Positions 2,391-58,079 are shown, numbered from the stretch's first letter. The stretch is 64,000 nt of DNA from Dictyostelium discoideum (GCA_000004695.1 CM000154.2:1504001-1568000), one strand, 5' to 3'. A program made the numbers and translations. The notes: generated by a model not told the origin, from the sequence alone.

Positions 2391-2574
2391 CCCAGGCAGA
2401 AATCGATTTTTTCGAACATTATTTTTTTTTTTTTTTTTTTTTTTAAAGAAATTAATTAAATGAAAGATCTATATTTAGATCTTAGGAAGTTAGTCTATTT
2501 TATTTTATTTTTATCTTTTTCCTAAAAAAATCTTTTTTTTTTATTTTTTTTTATTTTTTATTTTAATTTATAAT

Positions 2575-3971
2575 AATGAGAAGAGAGAATGAATGTAAAG
2601 AAAATGGAGAAAAAAGAAATAATGTAAATTCATTTAATAAAATCATTAAGCTAAGAGTAACTGATGATATTGAATATAGTGAATTATTATTTTGGAAGAT
2701 ATTTAGAAATAGTGATCAATAAAACAATAATGTCATTCATGGATAAACGATTCACACCAAAATATAAAACAATTTCAGATGGAGCTGAAATGATTCGAAA
2801 TAATCAATTCAGTCTATTAAAAGATAAAATTAAAATAAATTGCAGATATTTACAATTTCATGACAAAAGATATTCACAATTTTATGACAAAATAGGTTGT
2901 GAAATTGAAGTTTTAATAAATTATTTAAAACAATCGTTCGCGATAATCAATTTTACAGAAAATTCTTTAGAAACCACCTTTTTGAATATAGAAATAGAGG
3001 AGTAATCATTTCATTAATTATATCAAAGAATTTACAAGTATATCAACTATTCATAGAAGAGTTTAATCATATACCAACTGTTGAGGATTTAAAAATAGCA
3101 ACTTCATTTGGTGCAAACAAATTCATTAGATATCTATTAGAAAAATCACAACTAGAACAACCAAAATTTGAAAGATGATTTAGACAATTATAATTCAATC
3201 TATACAATAGTTACTTCATATAAATCATCAAATTTAAAGAGAGATATGTTTAAAGGATTACTATGCTATTTTAATTGTTATCAAAGTTTAAGAGATCATA
3301 ATAATAATAATAAATAATAATAATAATAATAATAAATTTCAAGAACTAACGATTGATACTCTTTTGAGTATTCACTCGAATAGAGAAAATGGGTTTATAA
3401 TAAAATCAACATCAACAATAAAATCACTATTTAGAGTTTGTAAATTAATATTAAAATTAAAAGTAATGACGAAAACAAATGAATCAGCAAACAACTAATC
3501 AGATTCAGCATCTCCTTCAATTACAATTCAATATATTGAAACATTTATAAAAATAACACCAAAAGAAAAATTAAAATCAACATTAGGAAACCCAATAAAT
3601 TCCAACTTTAACAATGATTGCAAGTATGATGATAGTGATGATGATGATGATGAACAACGTTTTTCTAAATTAATAGCATATCAAATTCAAGAATATTATA
3701 GTAATAGAAATAGAATACCACGGAAAGTATTCTATAAATCAAAAAGTGGTCAAATGGTTCAATTAATTCGTAAACATTGCAGAGATTCAGACTTTTGAAG
3801 TTATGGAAGTTTTTTTAGCTCATTATCAATCAACACATAACCTTTCACCTTCTCCACATTTTAAAGACGCCGAAGAAGTTAGTAATTAATTGCTTGGCTA
3901 ACAAGAACTATTTTTATATACACCCGATTTAGACAGTAGTTTTTTCAAAAGATTTGATAAACAACCTGAAG

Positions 3972-4034
<63 letters not shown>

Positions 4035-5463
4035 GTTGTAGGTCTAATGATGATAATGATGAACATAAAATCTTTATAAAGAAATTATTGGATGAATATT
4101 ATTCGATATTTTGTAAAGATAGATCAGCCATTTTATATTATTATTATTATGATGGATTTAATAATATCAATTTAGAAAATAAAAGTTTATACAGTGTAGA
4201 TTTAGAAGAATATTATGAATCATTTAGATTTGGAATTCCAACATTTGACTTGGTTGGCCATTTTCTTTGTGACTACCTTAACTTTTCATCATTGATAGAT
4301 ATCATGGAATATCCATATAAAAAGTCAATTAATATTTTATTCTCAAACTGTACAGATAGATTAAAAAGATTCGGTTTATAGATAAAGCCATTCAATCAAT
4401 AAAATCAGATGGTTTGCGAAATGTTGAAAATCAATTAACGAATTTCTTTCGTATGGTTGTCATGCACGACGATTTAGAATTAATAAAGTATTTTTTTAAA
4501 CAAGTTAATGGTTATCAATTAGATTTAGGTGGAAATTCACACTACTTATATAGATTTCACCCGACAATTTATATTGGTTCGGTAGATGTTTTAAATTATT
4601 TATTTGAAAATCATAGAGAATACTATTGACCATAAAAACAACTATTATTCCTATTTCGAGAATTTAGAATTATTAAAACATTTTGAAGGATTAACACTCA
4701 AAGTTCCATCAACATCAAGACTTGGTGGATACTTGCAACACTATACTAGAGGTGATAATTTTTAAAATTACGTATCACATCACCAGAAACCGTTTGTATT
4801 TGAGTACTGATTTGATTGAATCAATTTTTTCTTTCTTTCCAGAGAAAACAAGATTCCCAATCAATTTTATTCAATCTACAACTATTAATCTTAAAACATA
4901 CAAACTATTAACAACCATCGTACTTATACAAAGAAATTTCAAAGCCATAAGAATTGGACCAGATGTCTTCTCCAAAGATTTTTTAAACTTTTTAGATTGG
5001 ATATTTACAAATTATCCTAATATGATGAAAATAGGAGGAAGATTTTTTAATTAAAATCAACTACTTAAATTATTTCTTTTTCTAGCTAATAGGTTAAACA
5101 CTGGTGAAATTACTGATAATAATGAACTTGGATACATTCTATGCATCTAATTATGAACATTTTTCATGTTATAATAATTTTAAATATTTAGATTCAATGT
5201 TAAAAAATGTTAAAGATAATGAAATCTTTTTTAGGGCTATTGTAATTGCTGTTGCTAATTCAAGATTACATATTTTAGAATTTTTAAATGAAAAATGTGG
5301 TGATCTTGTAAAAGAAATAAAGAATTATAAAGGATTTAATTTTTTTCTAAATCAAGAATTTCCAAGAGATAATGTAAGGGTATCAGAATTTCTACTTCAA
5401 TTAATTAACCAAGCAGATTCAGAAAAATTATTTGGTCAAAAATCATTATTATATTTCAAATAA
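2575..5463 (+). pseudogene. Family X copy A: full-length but decayed copy of an unknown multi-copy gene family, with several in-frame stops and frameshifts.
   Basis: The 5' module 2575-2810 is about 95% identical to 6087-6320. The middle region 2930-3330 is homologous to 9600-10040. It carries an (AAT)n tract at 3971-4032 in the same position as the tract at 10044-10134. Segment 4088-4629 is homologous to the intact ORF 10186-10830 but broken (RFGL* at 4381, frame change before 4414). The tail 5104-5463 is homologous to the fragment at 12820-12960. Confidence 0.6.
3971..4032 (+). repeat. (AAT)21 in family X copy A.
   Basis: Orthologous position to the (AAT)~30 at 10044-10134 in copy C, with a different length. 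Confidence 0.85.
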
Positions 5464-6086
5464 ATTAAAGTCTTTAAATAAATAAATTTTTATTTTATTT
5501 CTTTTTTAGAAACTTTTTTTTTTTTTTTTTTTTGTAGTAAACATTTCATAAAAAGAGAAATTAAATATAATCATATATTAATTAAATATAAAAAGATTAT
5601 AAATAAATTATAAATAAAAAAGATATAAAAAAGATATAAAATAGATTTTTTTTTTTTTTTTCACTGTTTCATCGATTTTATTTATTATTATTCTTATTAT
5701 TCCCATGAATTTATTATTATAGTTAATTCTTTAATTATATATATATTTTTTTTTTAAATAATAATTTTATTTTATTTATTTTAATATGGATTTGGTATAG
5801 AAATAGAACACTCTAAAATACACAAAATGATATAAAAAATGAATGTAATTATTTTTTTTTAATTTTTATTTTTTTTATTTAAATGATTGCATTCTTTTTT
5901 TTTAAAAGAATGATTACATTTATTTTTTGTATTTTTTATATCATTTTATGTATTTTTGAGTACTCTATTTATATGTACTAAATTATATTAAAAATTAATA
6001 AAATTAAATTGTTTAAAAAAAAAAAAAAAAAAAAAAATTTCATTTTTTTTTTTTTTACTTTTTTTTTTTTTTATTTTGGTTTATAA

Positions 6087-6334
6087 TAATGAAAAGAGAG
6101 AATGAATGTAAAGAAAATGGGGAAAAAAGAAATAATGTAAATTCATTTAATAAAATCATTAAGCTAACAGTAACTGATGATATTGAATATGTGAATTATT
6201 ATTTTGGAAGATATTTAGAAATAGTGATCAATAAAATAATAATGTCATTCATGGATAAACGATTCACACCAAAATATAAAACAATTTCAGATGGAGCTGA
6301 AATGATTCGAAATAAATTTTTTGAAAAATATTGA
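6087..6334 (+). pseudogene. Family X copy B: 5' module only, truncated where it abuts or overlaps the 3' end of the minus-strand gene at 6264-7428.
   Basis: About 230 bp near-identical to 2575-2810, including the non-coding leader. The ORF 6089-6334 ends after homology stops. Confidence 0.55.
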
Positions 6335-7428
6335 CTGTAAAGAGATCTTGAATATTTTTGACTTGAACTAAATGATCACTACCACTATAGTAGTGTAATA
6401 CATCTCTGAATTGAAAAAGAGGTAAGGAACCATCTTCGTTAACTTTGGGTGATTGATAAAGTATTGATGCAGTTTTATACATTTCAAGTCTTTCTACTAC
6501 TTCCTTGATACATTCTGCTGTACAATCTTCCCCAAATTCAAATTCCAGTAAGTTATCATATTGAAAAAGGTTTCAGTAAAATCTGGAAATTTACTACTAT
6601 TATTTTCGAGACGTGGTGTATAGTTGAAATAACAAGAGTTTTCTTCCTTGAAACCACCTACCAAAATGGATATAATTTGAAAAGCACGAGGGCCCATTAT
6701 CATCAAACTTTTTTGGTATATTAACATCATTATAGTACCAACATACAGAGTTCATATAGTTTTTAAACATGGCCTATGTATATTGTATCATTTTTTTTTT
6801 ACATTCTTCACTACATCCATTTTTGATATCAGGAAAAAGATCACCCCTCATGAATTCTTCGATAACAGCAAATGATGTGCCACTGCCTACTCTTTGGAAC
6901 AAATCTTCAAAATTATATTTATCATGAACGCACATTCCAACAATTGTATATAAAAAATGAAATAAAAAAAATAAAAAAAAAAAAAAAAATAAAAAATCAA
7001 TTAATAAAAACTTTTTTTTTTTTTTAATTTTTAATTTTTATTTTTTAACTATGTAAGGTATTTGGATAATCTGGAAGGCTACCATCTTCATTTAATTCAA
7101 TTGATAAATCAAAACCATGTTCAAAATCTTTTTTATTTCCACGTCCCGATAATGAATCTAGATATGAGCCTGGGGTGATACTTTTATCTCTAATTAACTT
7201 GGCGTCGTTGAAGAACCAGCACAAGGCATTGGATTGATATTTGTACACATATTGGGTTATTTTTATCATCTTTTCTTTACACTCATTGGTACATCCTTGA
7301 GTAAATAAAGGGAAGTTGTCCCCTACTGTCAATATTTCTAAATACCTAAGAGGTACTTTTACAGCACCATCAAAGGTTAGGCTCTCGTGAGGGCACACTT
7401 TATATTTTCTACAATTATAATTTAACAT
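6264..7428 (-). pseudogene. Hypothetical gene built from two tandem copies of a Cys-containing ~120-aa module. The distal copy carries a stop and frameshifts, so it is probably a pseudogene or heavily intron-interrupted.
   Basis: Module 1 (7428-7045) contains ...GCTNECKEKMIKITQYVYKYQSNALCWFFNDAKLIRDK...EDGSLPDYPNTL. Module 2 (6960-6264) contains ...GCSEECKKKMIQYT*AMFKNYMNSVCWYYNDVNIPKK...EDGSLPLFQ, with TAG and frame changes near 6780 and 6700. An intron-like AT spacer lies at 6960-7044. Confidence 0.4.
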
Positions 7429-7817
7429 TTTAAAAATATATGTAAAATATTGGGTGGTGGTTAAATAAAAGCTATTTTTTTTTAAAAAAAAAAAAAATAA
7501 AAAAAAAAAAAAAAATAAAAATAAAATAAAAAAAAAAATTAATAAAAATAAACAACCTAAATAATTAAGAAAAGTTGGGTTATTTGTATTTTACATTTTT
7601 TTTTATGAAAACAACCACTAAAAATATACATACAATTAAAGTTAAAAATAGAAACAAGCAAAACAAAAATGGTAGCAAATTAAAATAATAATAATAAAAA
7701 TAAATTAAATAAAAATAAATTAAAAAATTATTTAAATAAAAAAAAAAAAAAAATTACCATTAAATTAATTATTTTTTTTATCTTCATTATATACAATTTA
7801 ATTTCATTAATTTTTTA

Positions 7818-9272
7818 ATGGCAAAACTAAAAATAATTATTTATATTGTAATAATTTTTTGTAGTAGTATCCAATTTTCTTTTGGATACGAAAAGGCGAT
7901 TGCTTCATTTTATCCACCTCCAGGTGATTTGCATCCCACTACTCATAATTTTTGGGCATGTAATAGTGTCATTAACCAAAACGGTGGATTCGGTCCACTT
8001 GAATGCAATAATGCCGGTATCTATGCAATTTTCTCGACCGCCAATGAGATCATCGACGGTAATGAATACATGCTTCCACTATTTTATATTGGAAGATCCA
8101 CTATAGATGTTCGAGATAGAATTGCTGATCACAGTAGACGAAACCATGTTGATAATGATTTCATTGTGTGTTATATGCGTTTCCCAGCATTGGATGATTA
8201 TGGTTACAGTAACAAAGTAACACCCGTTGAACAAGCTCTCCTTCACCAATTCAAAACTCAATTCAACTCATGGGATAACCTCGGTTTTGATCCACAGTAT
8301 GATACTGCTTATCCAGATGAAAATGGTTTGGGATGGGATATCCTTGCATCTTTTTATAATATGGATATCAATGCTCCATCTTTTAATATTGAAAAAGAGC
8401 CAGGCTTTGTATGGAATGGTCAAACTAATGGACATACTGAACGTTTCGTCCAATCATCATTAAAAGCTGATCAATCTGAAATATTTCCAGAGGGTATACC
8501 ATTCAGAACTGGTGAAGTAGCCATAGAAGGCAGTGATTTCTGTAATAGAACTGAAGAGGATTATACTTTTCATTCGCAGGGCTACTACCTAAGAATATCA
8601 AATGCTTTGGCATCAAGAAATAAGAATTCAAATCAAAATCAAAATCAAAATCAAAATCAAAATCAAAATCAAAATCAAAATCAAAATCAAAATCAAAATC
8701 AAAATCAAAATCATAATCAGAATCAAAATCCACATTCAAACTTTCAGGTTTCTAATGATCAATTAATTGCTATAGATGTTGGTATTGCAGGTGGTGCTAT
8801 CGTTGCAGGCGCTGGTGCAGCAGCAGCCGGTGCAGCAGCCGGTGCTGAGGGTGGTGCCGCAGGAGTTGCTTCCAGAGCTGGTGGTTATATTTCTCGTACT
8901 GCTAGTCGTGTTGGTAACTCTATACGTAGCAGAGCTACTCGTTATGCTAATCAAGGTTACAATTCCATGAGAAATGGTGCACAAAGAGCTGGCAACGGCG
9001 CACGTAATTATGCTAATGAAGGTTACAATTCCGTGAGAGATGGTGCACAAAGAGCTGGCAACGGCGCACGTAATTATGCTCAACAAGGTTATCAAGCATG
9101 GAGAGAAGGTGTCAATGAGATTGGTGATGATATCGCCAATACTGCACATGATGTAGGTGATGGTTTCGCCAATACTGCACGTGAAGTAGGTGATGGAATT
9201 AGAATCACTGCAGAGGAGGGATATGAACTCATTAAAGATGGAGCTGAAGAAACTTGGGTGAAGAAATATTAA
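7818..9272 (+). CDS. Secreted/membrane protein with an N-terminal GIY-YIG nuclease-like domain, an (NQ)n repeat, a Gly/Ala hydrophobic segment and an Arg/Gly/Asn-rich repeat tail.
   Basis: Continuous 484-codon ORF starting with a cleavable-signal-like MAKLKIIIYIVIIFCSSIQFSFG. Motifs: GIYAIFS...(20 aa)...YIGRSTIDVRDRIADHSRR, then VEQALLHQFKTQFNSWDNLGF, matching the GIY...YIG-x-S/T..R...H...E..FWI..L..GYN signature of GIY-YIG endonucleases (compare I-TevI). (AATCAAAATC)n at 8630-8720 encodes NQNQ... LIAIDVGIAGGAIVAGAGAAAAGAAAGA is a candidate TM segment. Three repeats follow of RAGNGARNYA(N/Q)(E/Q)GY. Confidence 0.6.
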   Translation: MAKLKIIIYIVIIFCSSIQFSFGYEKAIASFYPPPGDLHPTTHNFWACNSVINQNGGFGPLECNNAGIYAIFSTANEIIDGNEYMLPLFYIGRSTIDVRDRIADHSRRNHVDNDFIVCYMRFPALDDYGYSNKVTPVEQALLHQFKTQFNSWDNLGFDPQYDTAYPDENGLGWDILASFYNMDINAPSFNIEKEPGFVWNGQTNGHTERFVQSSLKADQSEIFPEGIPFRTGEVAIEGSDFCNRTEEDYTFHSQGYYLRISNALASRNKNSNQNQNQNQNQNQNQNQNQNQNQNQNQNHNQNQNPHSNFQVSNDQLIAIDVGIAGGAIVAGAGAAAAGAAAGAEGGAAGVASRAGGYISRTASRVGNSIRSRATRYANQGYNSMRNGAQRAGNGARNYANEGYNSVRDGAQRAGNGARNYAQQGYQAWREGVNEIGDDIANTAHDVGDGFANTAREVGDGIRITAEEGYELIKDGAEETWVKKY

Positions 9273-9311
9273 AGGTTATCCTTAATTAAAATTAAAAAAG
9301 CACAACAAAGA

Positions 9312-9485
9312 ATGGCTGAACAAGAAGAAAGAAGAAGGTTGATGCAAGAAGAAAGTGAAAGAAGACGATTGCAAAGAAACAGAGAAAGACAAGAGCCAAT
9401 TAGAACTTATACAACTGCACAAGAAGCTCAACGATATATACCCAAACCTGGTAACTTTGCACGTAAAAGAGGTGCAAGAAATTAA
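9312..9485 (+). CDS. Small basic Arg/Glu-rich ORF (57 aa) 40 bp downstream of the GIY-YIG-like gene. Could be an independent micro-gene, a 3' exon, or a by-chance ORF.
   Basis: ATG at 9312 to TAA at 9483. MAEQEERRRLMQEESERRRLQRNRERQEPIRTY.... Locally GC-richer than spacer. Confidence 0.2.
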   Translation: MAEQEERRRLMQEESERRRLQRNRERQEPIRTYTTAQEAQRYIPKPGNFARKRGARN

Positions 9486-9599
9486 AAAAAGAAAAAATAA
9501 AAATAATTAAAAGAAATAAAAAAAAAAAAAATTAAAAATTAAAAATTTTAAAAAAAAAAAAATAAACTACATCTCTTATATATAAAATAAATTATTCAA

Positions 9600-10042
9600 A
9601 ACAATCATTAGCGATAATGAATTTTACAGAAAATTCTTTAGAAACCACCTTTTTGAATTTACTAATAGAAAAGTAATCATTTCATTAATTACATCAAAGA
9701 ATTTACAAGTATATCAACTTTTTATAGAAGAGTTTAATCATACACCATCTGTTTATGATCTAAAAATAGTAATTTCAGTTGGTGCTAACAAATTCATTAG
9801 ATATCTATTAGAACAATCACAACTAGAACAATCAAAATTTAAAATAAACATATCAAAAGATGATTTAGATAATTATAATTCAATTGATACAATAGTTGCT
9901 CCAAATAAAGTTATTTCAAATTTAAGAAAAATTATTATAAATAATTCTTCTAAATTTTTTTTTCCATTTAAATTATTAAATTTAAAGAGAGATATGTTTA
10001 AAGGATTACTATGCTATTTTAATTGTTATCAAAGTTAAAGAG

Positions 10043-10135
<93 letters not shown>

Positions 10136-10830
10136 GTTGTAGGTCTAATGATGATGATGAACATAAAACCTTTATAAAGAAATTATTGGATGAATATTAT
10201 TCAATATTTTGTAAAGATAGATCAGTCATTATATATTATTATTACGATGGATTTAATAATATCAATTTAGAAAATAATAGTTTATACAGTGTAGATTTAG
10301 AAGAATATTATGAATCATTTAGATTTGGAATTCCAACATTTGACTTGGTTGGTCATTTTCTTTATGACCACCTTAATTTTAAATCATTGATAGATATCAT
10401 GGAATATCCATATAAAAAGTCAATTAATATTTTATTCTCAAATTGTACAGATAGATTAAAAAAGATTCAGTTAATAGATAAAGCCATTCAATCAATAAAA
10501 TCAGATGGTTTGCGAAATGTTGAAAATCAATTAACGAATTTCTTTTATATGGTTGTCATGCACGACGATTTAGAATTAATAAAGTATTTTTTCAAACAAA
10601 TTAATGGTTATCAATTACATTTGGGTGGTGGGGGTGGAGATTTACATTACTTATATATGTTTAACCCAACAATTTATATTGGTTCGGTAGATGTTTTAAA
10701 TTATTTATTTGAAAATCATAGAGAATATTTTATTGATGATAAATATAACTATTATTCCTATTTCAAGAATTTAGAATTATTAAAACACTTTGAAGCATTA
10801 TATATTTCAAATAAATCTTTAAATAAATAA
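9600..10830 (+). CDS. Family X copy C: middle and C-terminal portions. The C-terminal half (10186-10830, 214 aa) is an intact ORF. Upstream part 9670-10038 is open but separated by the (AAT)n tract and lacks the 5' module.
   Basis: Homology to copy A at 2930-3330 and 4088-4700. Contains IVISVGANKFIRYLLEQSQLEQ (ankyrin-like turn). (AAT)n at 10044-10134. Confidence 0.5.
10044..10134 (+). repeat. (AAT)~30 in family X copy C.
   Basis: Same flanks (...CYFNCYQS / SCRSNDD..HKTFIKKLLDEYYS) as in copy A. Confidence 0.85.
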
Positions 10831-10889
10831 ATAAATAAAAAAATTTAAAATAAAAATATTAACTGGGTTTAGAAAAAAAAATAATCAAA

Positions 10890-11230
10890 TATATATTATT
10901 AAGCAATTTCAAGTTGATCTGTGTAATCATTGATGCAGAATGGTCTGCGAAACTTTGGAACTTTTATCTTTGATCACTATCATTCAGAGGGTGGCTTCTT
11001 ATGTTGCCATCATATAGAATTGTTCTGGATACTGCTTCAATCACCATTACAAAGAGAGTAGGTGATAATGTATCTCCCTGTTTTACTCCTCTTTTTATAG
11101 TAAAGGGGGGTGTGAGTTTTCCATTGATTTCTATCCTGTTTTGAGTCTGTCAGTGGTTTCATAATTAGGTTTGTTAGGTTGGTGAGAACTTTGATATGTT
11201 AAACGTTCTAAGTATTAATTTTAAAAAAGT
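10890..11230 (-). mobile_element. Fragment of a non-LTR retrotransposon ORF2 (reverse-transcriptase palm motif).
   Basis: Minus-strand translation gives ...FTIKRGVKQGDTLSPTLFVMVIEAVSRTILYDG..., the canonical RT motif (R-G-V-R/K-Q-G-D-x-L-S-P-x-L-F) of LINE-like elements (TRE-type in dictyostelids). Locally GC-rich (~40%). Flanked by stops, so a fragment. Confidence 0.6.
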
Positions 11231-11519
11231 TATTTATCTCTGATTTTTTTTTTTTTTAATATTATAAAATCAGTGTTTATCCATGGTTATTCTTTTTTAA
11301 TTTGAGTTATCTAAGAGTTTTAATTTTAAAATGAAGTGTAGTTAAAATTGGTTTTGTGAATTGTTCGAATAGGTGTTTTTTTTTTTTTTATTTTATTTAT
11401 TCTTGTCGTCAGTATTGTTACTATAATTAATCCCATGAGTTTTTTTTTATTATTATTTTTTATTCTTTTATATTTGAGATGATTATTATTAATTAAATGA
11501 CTTTGAGTTTTTTTTTTTA

Positions 11520-11700
11520 TTTTTCTATGCCTAAAATTACCATATTAATTTCGGTAGGCATATTAATTTCAGCCTAAAATAGTTGGTCTGTGCATGCCAA
11601 AATTAATATGGCTGCTGAAATTAATATGGTAATTCTAGCAGACATAAGTCCCATGCCAAAACTATCATATTAATTTCAGCATCCATTATTAAAATTTTAT
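11520..11700. mobile_element. Transposon-terminus-like block with nested inverted repeats (hairpin-forming).
   Basis: TACCATATTAATTTC at about 11539 and its exact reverse complement GAAATTAATATGGTA at about 11617. Additional copies of the ATATTAATTTCAG core occur in both orientations (GGCATATTAATTTCAGCC / GCTGAAATTAATATGG / CTATCATATTAATTTCAGCATCC). Confidence 0.45.
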
Positions 11701-12330
11701 TAAAAAATAAAATTTATAAAATTTATAAAAAAAAAAAAAGCATTTTTTATTAAAATTTAATTAATACTAAAAAATAAGAAATTATATTAGAATTTTATAA
11801 ATTTTTTTAATTCGAGGTTATTTTTTTTTAAAAAAATAATTATAATAATTATTAGAAAATAGGATATTTTATAAAAAAATAAGATTATTATAAAAAATGT
11901 AGCCTTTATTATTTTAAATAAAATATATTAAAAAATAAGATAAATAAAAAAAAAATAATAAAATATATTAAAAATTAAAACATTATATAATTTTTAACAT
12001 GTTTTATTAAAATATAATAAATACTAAAAAAATGAGATAATATATAGAAGGTTATAAATTTTATTAATTATGGTTTTAATACTAAGATGTTTAGAAAATA
12101 ATAAAATAAATTATAAATAGGGAAATTTTATAATATTCAACATATTTTATTAAAATATAAGTAATCCCTAAAAAATAAGATAAAAAATATTAAATGAAAC
12201 TTTTTATTATTTTAAAAAATATAGGAATTGAATTAATAAAAATAAGATATATTATAAGAATACATATGTTAAAACAAGCAAAATTTTATTAATTTTGAAA
12301 AAAAATAAAAAAAATTTAGAAAAATAATTT
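11700..12330. repeat. Degenerate AT-rich tandem repeats (~100-bp unit containing AAAAATAAGAT...TTTTATTAAAATAT).
   Basis: Recurrent AAAAAATAAGA(T/A) and TTTTATTAAAATATAA(T/G)TAAT(A/C)CTAAAAAA blocks at about 11760, 11870, 11930, 12010, 12160, 12240. Confidence 0.4.
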
Positions 12331-12489
12331 GGCTTTTTTGGCACAACAATGTCCAATAAATTTAGTTAGTAAAAATTCAGACAGATTAATATTGCCATTA
12401 TGTAAAGGTATGATATCAAATAATAATTAAATCAAAATAGCTTTAATATTAATTATTTCTTTTTATTAAAAAATTAAATAGACGTTCCA

Positions 12490-12680
12490 TAATAATCAAT
12501 TGATTTTCAAGACCAGAGAAATCCAATGTGGCCTCATCTGAATGCATGGCGAATACCCATTGTATCCTGTAAGACCAATTAATTCCAATGTAGCTTCATC
12601 TGACGGTATTATGAATACCCATCTTATAAGACCAATTAATTCCAATGTGGCTTCATCTGTTGCAAATCGATTTTCATTTA
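12490..12680. repeat. About 2.6 copies of a ~62-bp tandem repeat (AGACCAATTAATTCCAATGTGGCTTCATCTG...).
   Basis: Three aligned units starting near 12497, 12558 and 12620 share GACCA(A/G)..ATTCCAATGT(G/A)GC(C/T)TCATCTG and ...GAATACCCAT(T/C)(G/T)TAT.. Confidence 0.6.
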
Positions 12681-12819
12681 TTAACTCTTATAATAATATA
12701 TTAAAAATTAATAAAATTTCTTTTTTTTTTAACATATTTTAAAATTTTTTTTTAATTTTTAATGAATTTTATTATTAGTATTATTTTTTTAATAATAAAA
12801 TTATAAATAAATGATTTAT

Positions 12820-12960
12820 TTATCAGAATTTCTACTTCAATTTATCAACCAAGCAGATTCAGAAAAACTTTTTTGGTCCAAAATCATTATTATATATTTC
12901 AAATAAATTTTAAAATCTTTAAATAAATAAATTTTTATTTTATTTCTTTTAAAAACTTTT
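12820..12960 (+). pseudogene. Family X copy D: isolated 3'-end fragment, homologous to 5385-5510.
   Basis: ATCAGAATTTCTACTTCAATT(T/A)AT(C/T)AACCAAGCAGATTCAGAAAAA...TTATTATAT(A)TTTCAAATAAATT shared with copy A, including the 3' flank. Confidence 0.5.
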
Positions 12961-13709
12961 TTTTTTTTTTTTAATATCCTTTTCTTTATTTTTTTTTTTA
13001 ATATTGGTTAATCAATGTTTATCAATTAAAGGAGATAACAATGGTTCATATTTTTTTTATGAATTTTAAATTTAAAATGTAATGCGGTTATTCTTTTTTA
13101 ATTTTAATTATCTATTAATGAATTTTAATAATATATTATTAGTAATAATAATAACCATACATGTGTAGTAAATAATTTATTGTAAATAATTTTTTAGAAT
13201 AAAAAAAAAATAAACCAATGTAAAAATATTTTTTTATTTATTTCTTTTTTATTTCTAATATATATATTATAAATTTTTTGATTAGATATTTTTAATAATT
13301 TTTTTATTTTTTTTTTTTTTTTTCCTTTTTTTTTTTTTTTTTTTTTTTTTTTTGTTTGATAATGTATATTTTAATAAATAAATAAAAAGTTTTTTTTTTT
13401 TTTTTTTTTTTTAAAAAAGGGGTTTATTTTTAGACCAAAAATTTGATGAATTGCTGTAAGGTCGACTTTTATATTAAACACATTTAATAAATTAAAAAAA
13501 TAATTTTAAATCCCATCTGATTTTTCAAATTTTTTTTTTTTTTTTTTTTTTCTTTTTTTTTATTAGGTCCAATACCAATAAAATAAATAATTTAAAAAGA
13601 AAAAAAATAAAAAAAGAAAAATTAACATCCTTTTATAACAATTCTCAAATAAAATATTTTTTTAAAATTTTCAATTTTTTTTTTTTTTTTTTTTTTCAAT
13701 CATACAATT

Positions 13710-47649: not shown

Positions 47650-51978
<4,329 letters not shown>

Positions 51979-52157
51979 CTAAAAATAAAAAAAAATTAAA
52001 AAAAAAAAAAATTAAAAAAATTAAAATTTTTTTTTTTTTTTTTATTAAAATCTTTAAAAAAAAAAAAAAATTTACATTTGAAATCAAATTGGTTATTTTT
52101 TTTTTTTTTTAGTAAAAACAATGAGGTATTAAAAAAAAAAAAAAAAAAAAAAAGCAA

Positions 52158-55881: not shown

Positions 55882-56160
55882 TTATGGAGAAGCTTGGGCA
55901 AAACATTGAATTGAACAGAAATAATGATTTGCTTTTGGTGTTTCTTTAACTATAAAAGGATTTGAAATTGAAGATTGACAAACAAAACAACATGATAAAA
56001 CCTTGTTTAATTTTTTAGAAGAGGATGGGGATTTTTTACTACTACTACGATGTTTTTTACTTGGTGTCTTAATTGGACTATTATTAACAATGATGTTATT
56101 AATTGATGGAGAAATTGAAATGGTTGCTGTGATTGTAGCAATTTGTGGTTGTTGTTGCGG

Positions 56161-56237
<77 letters not shown>

Positions 56238-56427
56238 GATGTTGTAGTAATGGATGTTGTTGAGATTGTTGTGGTTTATTATTCTCTTGGGTTTGATAAT
56301 AAGAGTAATGTGATTTTGGGATTTTATTTATTGAAATGCCATTATTAGTATTATTATTATTATTATTATTATTAGTCGGTATTGGTTTAGAGGAGGAATA
56401 TGGTAATCTCATTTCTGCAGTTGTCAT
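55882..56427 (-). CDS. PolyQ/poly-N protein with a C-terminal MYM/FCS-type zinc finger.
   Basis: (CAA/TTG)n at 56155-56240 encodes about 45 Q. C-terminal CCFVCQ-x22-HYFCSIQC fits C-x2-C-x(19-22)-F/YCS-x2-C. Confidence 0.6.
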
Positions 56428-56807
56428 ACGGTAGAAGAAAGAAGAAAAGAAAGGAAAAAAAAAAAATATATAAAGAACTTTGGTTTAAATTTGAAAAGCG
56501 TGTGCTATCTCTTTTTGATGATTTAATTCAATAATAATAATAATAATAATAATTTTAATTCATAAAATATTATTATTGATTTTGTTATTTTGATATATAT
56601 ATATTTATATTCGAAATTAGCCAATTCCCTTTGGTGATGGATTAAGATAAAGTACAACTAATAATAGTGTATCTCTTGCAATCTTTATCATGAAATGTAT
56701 AATCCAAAAAAATTATTTAAATTTTCTATTAAATTATTATATATAAATATATATATATATATATTATAATTTTTATAAATTTTTAATAAATAAATAAATA
56801 AATAATA

Positions 56808-56842
<35 letters not shown>

Positions 56843-57284
56843 AAAGAATTTATATTTTAAATTTTTGATTGATGTTATCGAATAAATTATATATAATTGA
56901 ATGGAAATAAAAAAATATAAATAAAAAAAAAATATTAAAAAAGTAAAATAAAATATTATATTAGTATTTAAAATTTTTTATTTTTAAAACTATAAAATTT
57001 TTTAAAAATGATAGGCTAATAATCAAAGACAAGAGAATGGCTTTTTATAAATTATTTTTTTTTTATATTTTTGTGTATTTATGAATTGTCAAATAATGCA
57101 TCATTATTAATTTTATTAAAATTTTTTTTTTTTTTTTTTTATTTTATTTGTGTGGCATCAATATAAAAATTGAACGATAATAAATAAACTGTTTTTTTAC
57201 AACAACAACAAAAATAATAATAATAAAAATACTAACAACAATTAATTAATAATTGTATTTGTGGAAAGGTAGATTTATGTTTTG

Positions 57285-57319
<35 letters not shown>

Positions 57320-57756
57320 TAATAATAAAATGGGGTTTGATTTCAATTAGAACACAAAATAAAAAAAATATAATAGTAATAATTTAAATGGGGTTTATGT
57401 ATCTGTATATATGTGTGTACGTGTGTGTATAAAAAAAAATTCGTATTTGATTTTTGATGATTTGATTTGATTAAATTTTTTGGTAAAAAGGTATATATAT
57501 AGTATGTGTGAGTGTGTTGGATTAACATTGTTTTTGTAGTTGTTTATTTTTATGTGGATACAAACAATTAAATTATGATAAAGATTTCAACAAATGATGA
57601 ATAGGAAAAAAAAAAAAAGAAAAATTGATTTCCTATATTTTTTAATTTATTATGGTATAATGTATGAGTGTTTATTTTTATATCTAGTATATTTATATGA
57701 GTGAGTGTCTTGTGTGTGTGTGTATGTTTATTTCTGAAAAAAAGAATTATAAAATT

Positions 57757-57788
<32 letters not shown>

Positions 57789-58079
57789 TAATAAGATTTT
57801 TATAAAATGAAATAATATAAAAACAAATTAATTTTTCCCCAATGTTATAAAATATGTAAATATAATAATTATAATAATAATAATAATAATAATAATAATT
57901 ATAATTATAAAAAGTAAAAGATAATAAAAATAATTCTTTTAACAACTAATTTTTAATATACAATTTTAAAAAATAAATAAAAAAAATAAAATAAAAAATA
58001 AAATTTTTTAAAATAAAATTAAAATTAAAAAAAAAAGATTTAAAAAAACAAACAAATAATAAAATATTTAAATATTCGA

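Follow-up and report, generated by a model that had tools for sequence, protein, structure and literature searches.

A decaying tandem cluster of Rho_N-type pseudogenes on chromosome 5 of Dictyostelium discoideum

We examined a cluster of related gene pieces within a 64,000-nt stretch of Dictyostelium discoideum chromosome 5 (GCA_000004695.1, CM000154.2:1504001-1568000; G+C content ~22 %), hereafter referred to as the window. The locus, situated between DDB_G0288407 and a spliced WD-repeat gene (reconstructed as 1276 aa), is very likely a non-functional, decaying tandem cluster of pseudogenes comprising at least three copies of a Rho_N-type, single-exon gene family whose products are ~950 aa in length. 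Self-BLAST of positions 2400-13200 against the whole window confirmed four homologous pieces, all on the plus strand: A (2533-5529), B (6047-6315), C (9586-10830) and D (12821-12972).

Four pieces of a Dictyostelium-restricted gene family

Pairwise identities between the pieces ranged from 86 to 97 % with E values of 1e-48 to 0, far above low-complexity noise. A 2533-2803 aligned to B 6047-6315 with 96.7 % identity over 271 bp, 43 bp of which lay 5' of the ATG. A and C aligned in three segments, namely A 2915-3237 with C 9586-9925 (85.9 %, 340 bp aligned), A 3217-3335 with C 9965-10085 (94.2 %, 121 bp aligned) and A 3972-4693 with C 10073-10800 (92.6 %, 734 bp), whilst A 5381-5529 aligned to D 12821-12972 (91.6 %, 154 bp), extending 66 bp beyond the stop codon. 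Further family copies were not found in the window by tblastn using 13 intact family proteins as queries. A preliminary description had interpreted the region as a cluster of decaying members of a single family in the same orientation; both the self-BLAST and the pairwise alignments agree with this, and the homologies are real and extend beyond the AAT tracts.

Frameshift correction of copy A yielded a 939-aa protein that matched 13 proteins (E values 7.8e-79 to 1e-4), exclusively from Dictyostelium. These originated from D. firmibasis, D. discoideum AX4 (DDB_G0271166 and DDB_G0271438) and wild isolates, and displayed 37-42 % identity to the corrected protein over the best local alignment. The family, initially considered unknown, could be named on the basis of these matches, and sequence similarity assigns the cluster pieces to the Dictyostelium-restricted DDB_G0271438/DDB_G0271166 type of 'Rho_N domain-containing' proteins. 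Similarity was collinear over most of the ~950 aa, as seen both for the corrected A protein and for tblastn high-scoring segment pairs (HSPs) over A, B and C. DDB_G0271438 has served as a target for quantitative reverse-transcription PCR, so it is at least transcribed (PMC3640940).

Intact family members are single-exon genes encoding 890-1076 aa (e.g. 952 aa in 2859 bp and 943 aa in 2832 bp). Their sole recognizable domain was a Rho_N/SAP-like N-terminal module (PF07498), identified in 8 of 10 intact members with a best E value of 6.5e-9. Searches of these members by Pfam and by NCBI names indicated no other domain, Pfam revealed no transposase or reverse transcriptase (RT) domains in them, and no relative was found in PDB by sequence; Pfam likewise returned no match for any piece of copies A and C. 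An AlphaFold2 model of P0006, an intact member from locus L003, was all-alpha but of low confidence (10-sequence alignment; predicted local distance difference test score, pLDDT, 55). A fold assignment for this model was dropped, as Foldseek against PDB gave only non-significant HEAT/ARM-type solenoids (best E 0.09, template-modelling score, TM, 0.15). The body of the protein past the Rho_N module is an orphan region, which the model predicts to be all-helical.

Family arrays at other loci displayed comparable damage. The L003 array, at the locus of the AX4-type paralog, contained one intact copy (902 aa), one with an internal deletion (304 aa), P0006, a 5'-truncated 672-aa copy and a 3' fragment that a transposon has split; the locus of the D. 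firmibasis best match (L002) contained two family copies and a fragment, and the P0007 locus (L008) was a tandem pair of one intact and one frameshifted copy. The arrangement was tandem and same-strand in the window and at all three of these loci. Since these arrays also hold damaged head-to-tail copies, tandem duplication followed by decay appears, from the sequences compared, to be a general property of the Rho_N family. The deleted, truncated and frameshifted copies they contain also suit the birth-and-death locus envisaged in the preliminary description. As candidates for a syntenic counterpart of the window, L002 and L003 were rejected because neither is syntenic, and L008 because it is an unrelated tandem pair. 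At L003, a DDE_3 (Tc1/mariner-type) transposase gene (L003 15209-16693) lies directly upstream of, and adjoins, the 5'-truncated 672-aa copy (L003 16918-19136), representing a second kind of transposon tied to damage in the family.

The copies in the window differ from intact members in that none of A, B, C or D retains a single uninterrupted exon of ~2.8 kb, and the N-terminal Rho_N module is missing from A and B. Because A is frame-broken and B, C and D are fragments, when compared with the single-exon intact members, the window copies are best regarded as pseudogenes and not as functional members.

Lesions and history of the individual copies

Copy A (2533-5529, plus strand) is a near-full-length pseudogene with a CDS-like part at 2576-5463, a 43-bp 5' leader shared with B and a 66-bp 3' flank shared with D. 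In three-frame translation and tblastn, its reading frame changed nine times and was interrupted by at least five stops, with the frames of successive HSPs running 2,0,2,0,1,2,1,2,0,1, and collinearity with intact members was maintained from their residue ~50 to ~890. Both A and B begin at the equivalent of P0006 residue ~57 and therefore lack the ~55-aa Rho_N module; upstream of the start of A there is just AT-rich leader beside the neighbouring gene. The earlier account of A as full-length with many stops and frameshifts was accordingly correct for the lesions but not for the length. Two (AAT)n tracts were identified on the plus strand of A by Tandem Repeats Finder (TRF): an imperfect tract of ~12 units at 3298-3335 and a perfect (AAT)21 tract at 3972-4034, which form the left and right edges, respectively, of a segment deleted in C. 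The site of the second tract is also N-rich in intact paralogs.

The lesions were reproduced in a second assembly. Chromosome CM142511.1 of GCA_054883475.1 (locus L001) was 99.83 % identical to the window over 17.4 kb, with just seven differences, all of them in homopolymer lengths and outside coding lesions. As these seven homopolymer runs are the sole differences, every frameshift, stop and deletion described here is present in both assemblies. De novo assemblies of nine wild isolates and the laboratory strain AX2-214 have been generated from Nanopore and Illumina data (bioRxiv 10.1101/2025.08.01.668227), and GCA_054883475.1 is most likely the AX2-214 assembly. Its automated annotation cut copy A (~2561-5448) into four gene models of 183, 292, 140 and 113 aa, and placed a 416-aa model over 9312-10830 that fuses a small ORF at 9312-9485 with copy C; these models on A and C are likely annotation artefacts.

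Copy B (6047-6315, plus strand) comprises the 5' leader and the first ~240 bp of the CDS, with homology ending abruptly at 6315. It carries the 2-bp deletion seen in A inside the invariant LFWK.FRN..I motif, as well as a B-specific 1-bp deletion at ~6191, 22 bp upstream of the shared deletion. Together, the two deletions restore the frame by accident and give rise to an 81-codon ORF (6089-6334). Because the disabling 2-bp frameshift is common to both copies, B was probably derived, through copying or conversion, from an A-type sequence that was already disabled. This finding strengthens the proposal of recent duplication or conversion originally made from an A/B identity, leader included, of ~95 %, for which we measured 96.7 %.

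Copy C (9586-10830, plus strand) is 5'-truncated and twice internally deleted but keeps its own 3' terminus. It starts at family residue ~159 and covers residues ~159-290 and 394-617 of ~950, and so represents the N-proximal and middle parts of the protein, not the middle and C-terminal parts as first described. Positions 9589-10830 form one frame of 414 codons, interrupted once, by a TAA at 10036-10038 in place of the TTA of A; this frame lacks an ATG near its 5' end and is closely preceded by a stop at 9583. The intact ORF of 214 aa previously noted in C begins at an arbitrary TTG within this longer frame. The first deletion removed the equivalent of A 3336-3971 (636 bp of coding sequence), exactly between the two AAT tracts of A, and a single (AAT)31 tract at 10043-10135 bridges the deletion in C, as evident from TRF and the A/C alignment. 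Since the removed segment encodes residues present in intact paralogs, this deletion is derived and microsatellite-associated. An AAT length polymorphism at one site had been suggested for A and C; an Asn-rich second site does exist in the paralogs, but A has two tracts and the tract in C is a deletion junction. The second deletion, corresponding to A 4694 to ~5443 (~750 bp), left only ~35 bp of terminus from the last third of the gene, and the tail of C no longer reads in the ancestral frame.

In the regions common to both copies, A has three frameshifts of its own (deletions of 14, 1 and 2 bp) that are absent from C, and C has none of its own, suggesting that the two copies were inactivated independently, after duplication of an intact gene. 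The Nei-Gojobori dN/dS for A and C was 0.51 (19 synonymous and 45 non-synonymous changes) and 0.40 in the 3' segment of C, estimates drawn from just 64 substitutions in a genome with a strong AT bias; the overall value would fit some purifying selection after duplication.

Copy D (12821-12972, plus strand) retains the final 83 bp of the CDS and ~65 bp of 3' flank, and has four small indels relative to A. Two oligomers, the 16-mer TATATTTCAAATAAAT and the 17-mer TCTTTAAATAAATAAAT, were confined to the ends of A, C and D within the entire 64 kb. As each of these pieces ends with both oligomers, at least three independent 3' ends are indicated, and D would be the remnant of a third copy. We had also considered C and D as the two parts of a single 3' end split by the intervening transposable element (TE) block; this was ruled out because both carry the terminal 16-mer and 17-mer.

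The question of whether B and C are halves of one copy bears directly on copy number. A 3.3-kb block of unrelated genes (6316-9585) lies between them, and the homology edges of this block (≤6325 and ≥9538) are within 10 bp of the end of B and within 48 bp of the start of C. In the coordinates of A, the end of B falls at 2803 and the start of C at 2915. Since the pieces abut both edges of the block and are near-contiguous in gene coordinates, we consider it slightly better than an even bet that B and C are halves of one copy split by the block with the loss of 111 bp. The four pieces that were originally counted as four copies or fragments are all genuine, but the number of copies is then probably three (A, B+C and D). 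A serious competitor, to which we give a little under an even chance, is that B is a separate, young partial duplicate of the 5' end of A, for example a templated patch from double-strand-break repair, and that the four pieces are independent. Substitutions between A and B amount to ~2 % as opposed to ~9 % in the adjoining part of A and C, B has the disabling 2-bp deletion of A whilst C has none of the A frameshifts, and the junction between B and the block truncates both B and a small-gene unit within the block, as would occur at a breakpoint. Conversely, B and C are in the correct order and orientation with near-contiguous breakpoints, each abuts one edge of the same block, and the low divergence of B from A would follow just as well from gene conversion confined to what homology remained.

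Copy C had also been put forward as the only potentially functional unit of the cluster. That it is a functional or new chimeric gene, alone or spliced to the ORF at 9312-9485 with an intron removing the TAA and the AAT tract, we regard as distinctly improbable. The 414-codon frame with its single stop, the dN/dS of 0.40 in the 3' segment, the 416-aa model and the good conservation of ORF 9312-9485 between species would all be expected of such a gene. However, C lacks a start codon and carries a nonsense codon, more than half of the protein is gone (family residues 1-158, ~291-393 and 618-950) and the 3' tail is out of frame. Splicing would invoke introns that are foreign to the intact family members, all of which are single exons. 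The gene model is no evidence of function, given that the same pipeline splits the dead copy A into four 'genes', and a low dN/dS can predate inactivation. Amongst sites that differ between A and C, the family residue was kept by A alone at 9 and by C alone at 13, several of the latter comparisons falling in the non-homologous tail. A relative-rate test of A against C showed no significant asymmetry and cannot rescue C. Loss of consensus residues thus proceeded at the same rate in C as in the dead copy A, and C appears to be dead as a family member.

Two further explanations were considered. It is very unlikely that the Rho_N family is a part or cargo of a mobile element, or that the pieces are processed retrocopies, despite the 5' truncation of C and D with 3' ends kept, the TE debris beside these two copies, and the thug-S-like element and DDE_3 gene that adjoin family copies at L003. 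The 3' ends lack a poly(A) tail, terminal repeats or a target-site duplication (TSD), with A and D instead entering a shared flank and then a T-run; B is a 5'-only piece; and the copies are found head-to-tail at few loci and are not dispersed, whilst the absence of introns is uninformative as the parent genes are intronless. Moreover, intact members encode neither a transposase nor an RT domain, and at L003 the transposon has clearly inserted into a family copy, being bounded by a 6-bp TSD of its own. Finally, the view that the frame breaks are sequencing or assembly errors, to which such AT-rich and homopolymer-rich DNA is prone, or introns within otherwise intact genes, is effectively refuted: an independently generated assembly carries all the lesions, these include deletions of 14 bp, 636 bp and ~750 bp and several TAA and TGA stops, and intact spliced ORFs are not recovered by modelling introns, the intact paralogs being single exons.

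Under the interpretation of the locus as a tandem pseudogene cluster, we infer the following order of events. A family member already without Rho_N would have been duplicated in tandem at least twice while intact, as suggested by the absence of A frameshifts from C and the A/C dN/dS of ~0.5. Inactivation would then have been independent in each copy: numerous small indels and stops in A; in the second copy, the TTA to TAA change, the 636-bp deletion from AAT tract to AAT tract and a ~750-bp microhomology deletion. The 3.3-kb block may have disrupted this second copy, leaving B and C as its halves, and the third copy would have lost all but 150 bp (D), next to a fragment of a non-LTR (long terminal repeat) retrotransposon RT and a thug-S-like terminal inverted repeat (TIR). 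Given that both A and B hold the 2-bp frameshift, their 5' ends were presumably homogenized after the death of A, via gene conversion or re-copying. Several points weigh against this reconstruction. The small number of substitutions limits what can be drawn from dN/dS, the unity of B and C demands an extra gene conversion to account for the low A-B divergence, and the ancestral state of the locus is a deduction. Furthermore, the largely open frame of C and the automated model that covers it make residual or chimeric expression conceivable.

Transposon debris and neighbouring genes

The preliminary description had the cluster interleaved with an RT fragment, repeat and hairpin DNA and an opposite-strand pseudogene. 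Our analysis supports the interleaving, with an RT of the non-LTR type and several opposite-strand genes. This fragment (10890-11180, minus strand) displayed the motifs GVKQGDTLSPTLF and FADH, an internal stop and a stop-free core at 10967-11149. Its Pfam RVT_1 match (E = 8e-4) fell under the gathering score since only ~30 residues align. A phmmer search of 1.84 billion representatives returned 253 matches (best E 1.4e-14), and of the top eight, all contained RVT_1 and two contained an apurinic/apyrimidinic (APE) endonuclease domain (Exo_endo_phos). An intact ORF2 is not present in the fragment, with ~80-95 codons left, including a stop. Transfer RNA genes, the usual target of TRE elements, were not found in the 64-kb window.

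The hairpin DNA is very probably a solo, tip-eroded TIR of thug-S, a name that follows from the literature placement of microRNA (miRNA) loci. The repeat (11368-11692; 325 bp) has its outer end at 11692, lacks the outermost ~14 bp and is 95.4 % identical to the TIR of a ~2-kb element at L003. That element (L003 661-2639) has perfect TIR tips (TGTCCCATGCC...GGCATGGGACA), TIRs of ~330-385 bp and a perfect 6-bp TSD (ATTAAC), is inserted in a family 3' fragment, and encodes a 178-aa ORF without a Pfam match; a second copy at L003 20574-21938 was 93 % identical. Hence a complete element with two TIRs and a TSD is seen at L003, whereas the window contains one tip-eroded TIR and no element body. A match to the mir-7131 precursor (Rfam RF03716) was identified in the outer 88 bp of the repeat (11605-11692) with 85.5 and 83.4 bits on the two strands against a gathering score of 74, matching on both strands because the hairpin is palindromic, and the L003 copy (L003 677-763) scored 98.9 bits. 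A literature search for 'mir-7131' found nothing, but multicopy miRNA loci of D. discoideum are reported to sit in the thug-S DNA transposon (PMC6161686, PMC4894637).

The remaining interval up to D (11693-12820) is repeat debris. It includes degenerate AT-rich repeats of ~143 bp (11690-12330), a 57-62-bp unit present in 2.3-3 copies at 12502-12659 (TRF) and a transposon-like segment at 12670-12784 that is ~72 % similar to the inner part of the L003-type transposon family. On the minus strand, the 57-62-bp unit reads a repeated peptide, ..SDEATLELIGL.., and may stem from a repeat-containing gene or a transposon ORF of which a fragment remains.

The block between B and C contains several gene units. 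What had been described as one frameshifted tandem-domain gene on the minus strand (6264-7428) in fact consists of an intact gene, a pseudogene and a truncated unit, all on that strand. The intact gene is DDB_G0288417 (7045-7428), whose 127-aa ORF (7428..7048) corresponds exactly to the annotated gene of strain AX4 and is outside the pseudogene family; it was 92 % identical in one wild isolate and 78 % in D. dimigraforme, and is conserved in D. citrinum too. The pseudogene (6566-6935) is orthologous to an intact D. dimigraforme gene of 126 aa, to which it showed 91 % aa identity over residues 1-90, and is disabled by a CAA to TAA nonsense change and a frameshift. The truncated third small-gene unit (6316-6560) is homologous to a 115-aa gene model at a D. 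discoideum locus (L004) and has lost ~21 3' codons at the junction with B.

On the plus strand, an intact-looking gene (7818-9485) comprises a 484-aa ORF (7818-9272) followed by ORF 9312-9485 as a probable final exon or small ORF. The 484-aa ORF has a G+C content of 33 %, unusually high for the genome, a hydrophobic N-terminus, a Gly/Ala-rich stretch and internal repeats, including (AAATCA)17 encoding Asn-Gln and coding repeats of 66 bp and 33 bp. A GIY-YIG-like motif spotted by eye in this protein was not supported by Pfam. The region 9282-9538, containing the Arg/Glu-rich 57-aa ORF 9312-9485, displayed 89 % nucleotide identity to D. dimigraforme, whereas the 484-aa gene displayed just 31-45 % aa identity, far below the conservation of the small ORF. 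ORF 9312-9485 is probably either a genuine small gene or the terminal exon of the 484-aa gene; a GT...AG intron may lie at ~9258-9306.

Aside from a local inversion, the block as a whole is collinear with a D. dimigraforme locus (L005) and partly present at L004. Neither locus contains family sequence, and the far flank of L005 matches L004 and not the window. These comparisons suggest that the block is an older unit. Separately, DDB_G0288417 and its upstream sequence (window 7005-7856) had copies of 86-98 % identity in wild isolates (L006 and L007), set in wholly different neighbourhoods that included a 1225-aa TIG-domain (tgr-like) gene and a histidyl-tRNA synthetase gene. The gene looks like a dispersed, mobile-looking unit and the AX4 locus like a patchwork. 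It was accordingly rejected as a synteny anchor, L004, L006 and L007 sharing just the gene or the block in unrelated contexts. A literature search on DDB_G0288409-0288419 gave no matches.

The spacer between A and B (5530-6046) is AT-rich and without an identified homolog. It contains an imperfect palindrome of ~280 bp (5746-6024), whose best arms (5797-5840 and 5931-5974; 44 nt) are 89 % complementary, with no Rfam match and no second copy in the sequences compared. Directly upstream of copy A, DDB_G0288407 (1699-2295, minus strand) had no detectable homologs outside the AX4 lineage in a database of 5.8 billion proteins, wild isolates included, which ruled it out as a synteny anchor; it may be an orphan or mis-annotated ORF. 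Elsewhere in the window, GC skew reached 0.40 at 50001-52000 and 0.48 at 56001-58000, a strong G-over-C asymmetry in otherwise AT-rich DNA that points to simple repeats rich in purines or to coding repeats with a strong bias.

Significance and comparison with known systems

For annotation, the cluster shows where pipelines generate spurious genes (four models from A and a 416-aa chimera from C), provides a name for the parent family, separates the real gene DDB_G0288417 from its dead neighbours and draws attention to an additional mir-7131 hairpin in the genome. It also documents fast turnover in an uncharacterized family specific to group-4 dictyostelids, with traits that include tandem arrays, hits by thug-S-like transposons, loss of sequence between poly-Asn (AAT)n tracts and conversion after gene death. 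As such, it offers a small, clean example of AT-rich microsatellites and transposons eroding genes in a compact genome.

Compared with the intact Rho_N family (DDB_G0271438, DDB_G0271166 and D. firmibasis RB653_009828), copy A is collinear from residue ~46-60 to ~790-895 at 37-42 % identity, B, C and D are parts of the same gene, and the array is tandem and same-strand as at paralogous loci. The window copies differ in being without the N-terminal module and in being disabled throughout. With only ~40 % identity to any intact member, they appear to form a separate, extinct sublineage. The RT fragment shares long interspersed nuclear element (LINE)-type RT motifs and RVT_1/APE relatives with the TRE-type non-LTR elements of D. 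discoideum (PMC5633606, PMC5006619), but is reduced to ~80-95 codons with an internal stop, in a window without a tRNA gene. The solo TIR, with its mir-7131 hairpin, would agree with the reported placement of multicopy miRNA loci in thug-S, the literature from which the name is drawn.

A parallel for birth-and-death evolution of tandem families is the tgr family of D. discoideum, for which 38 genes and 26 pseudogenes have been described in rearrangement-prone loci (bioRxiv 10.1101/2025.08.01.668227). Unlike tgr, the window locus holds no surviving functional member, and no sign of diversifying selection or a recognition function was found there. It is a long shot that the site is a rearrangement-prone patchwork of the kind that surrounds tgr genes, in which the block, the B patch and transposon ends are swapped, captured or re-copied, and in which a chimeric transcript of ORF 9312-9485 and copy C, or small RNAs from the mir-7131 copy or from B antisense to the small-gene tail, regulate intact paralogs. 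In sum, the cluster represents an undescribed yet ordinary case of a birth-and-death pseudogene cluster, with no new mechanism or system. As in tgr birth-and-death, tandem duplication would have been followed by independent pseudogenization, truncation, deletion and TE insertion, and like the tgr loci, this locus is a patchwork, its segments occurring in different contexts in other isolates.

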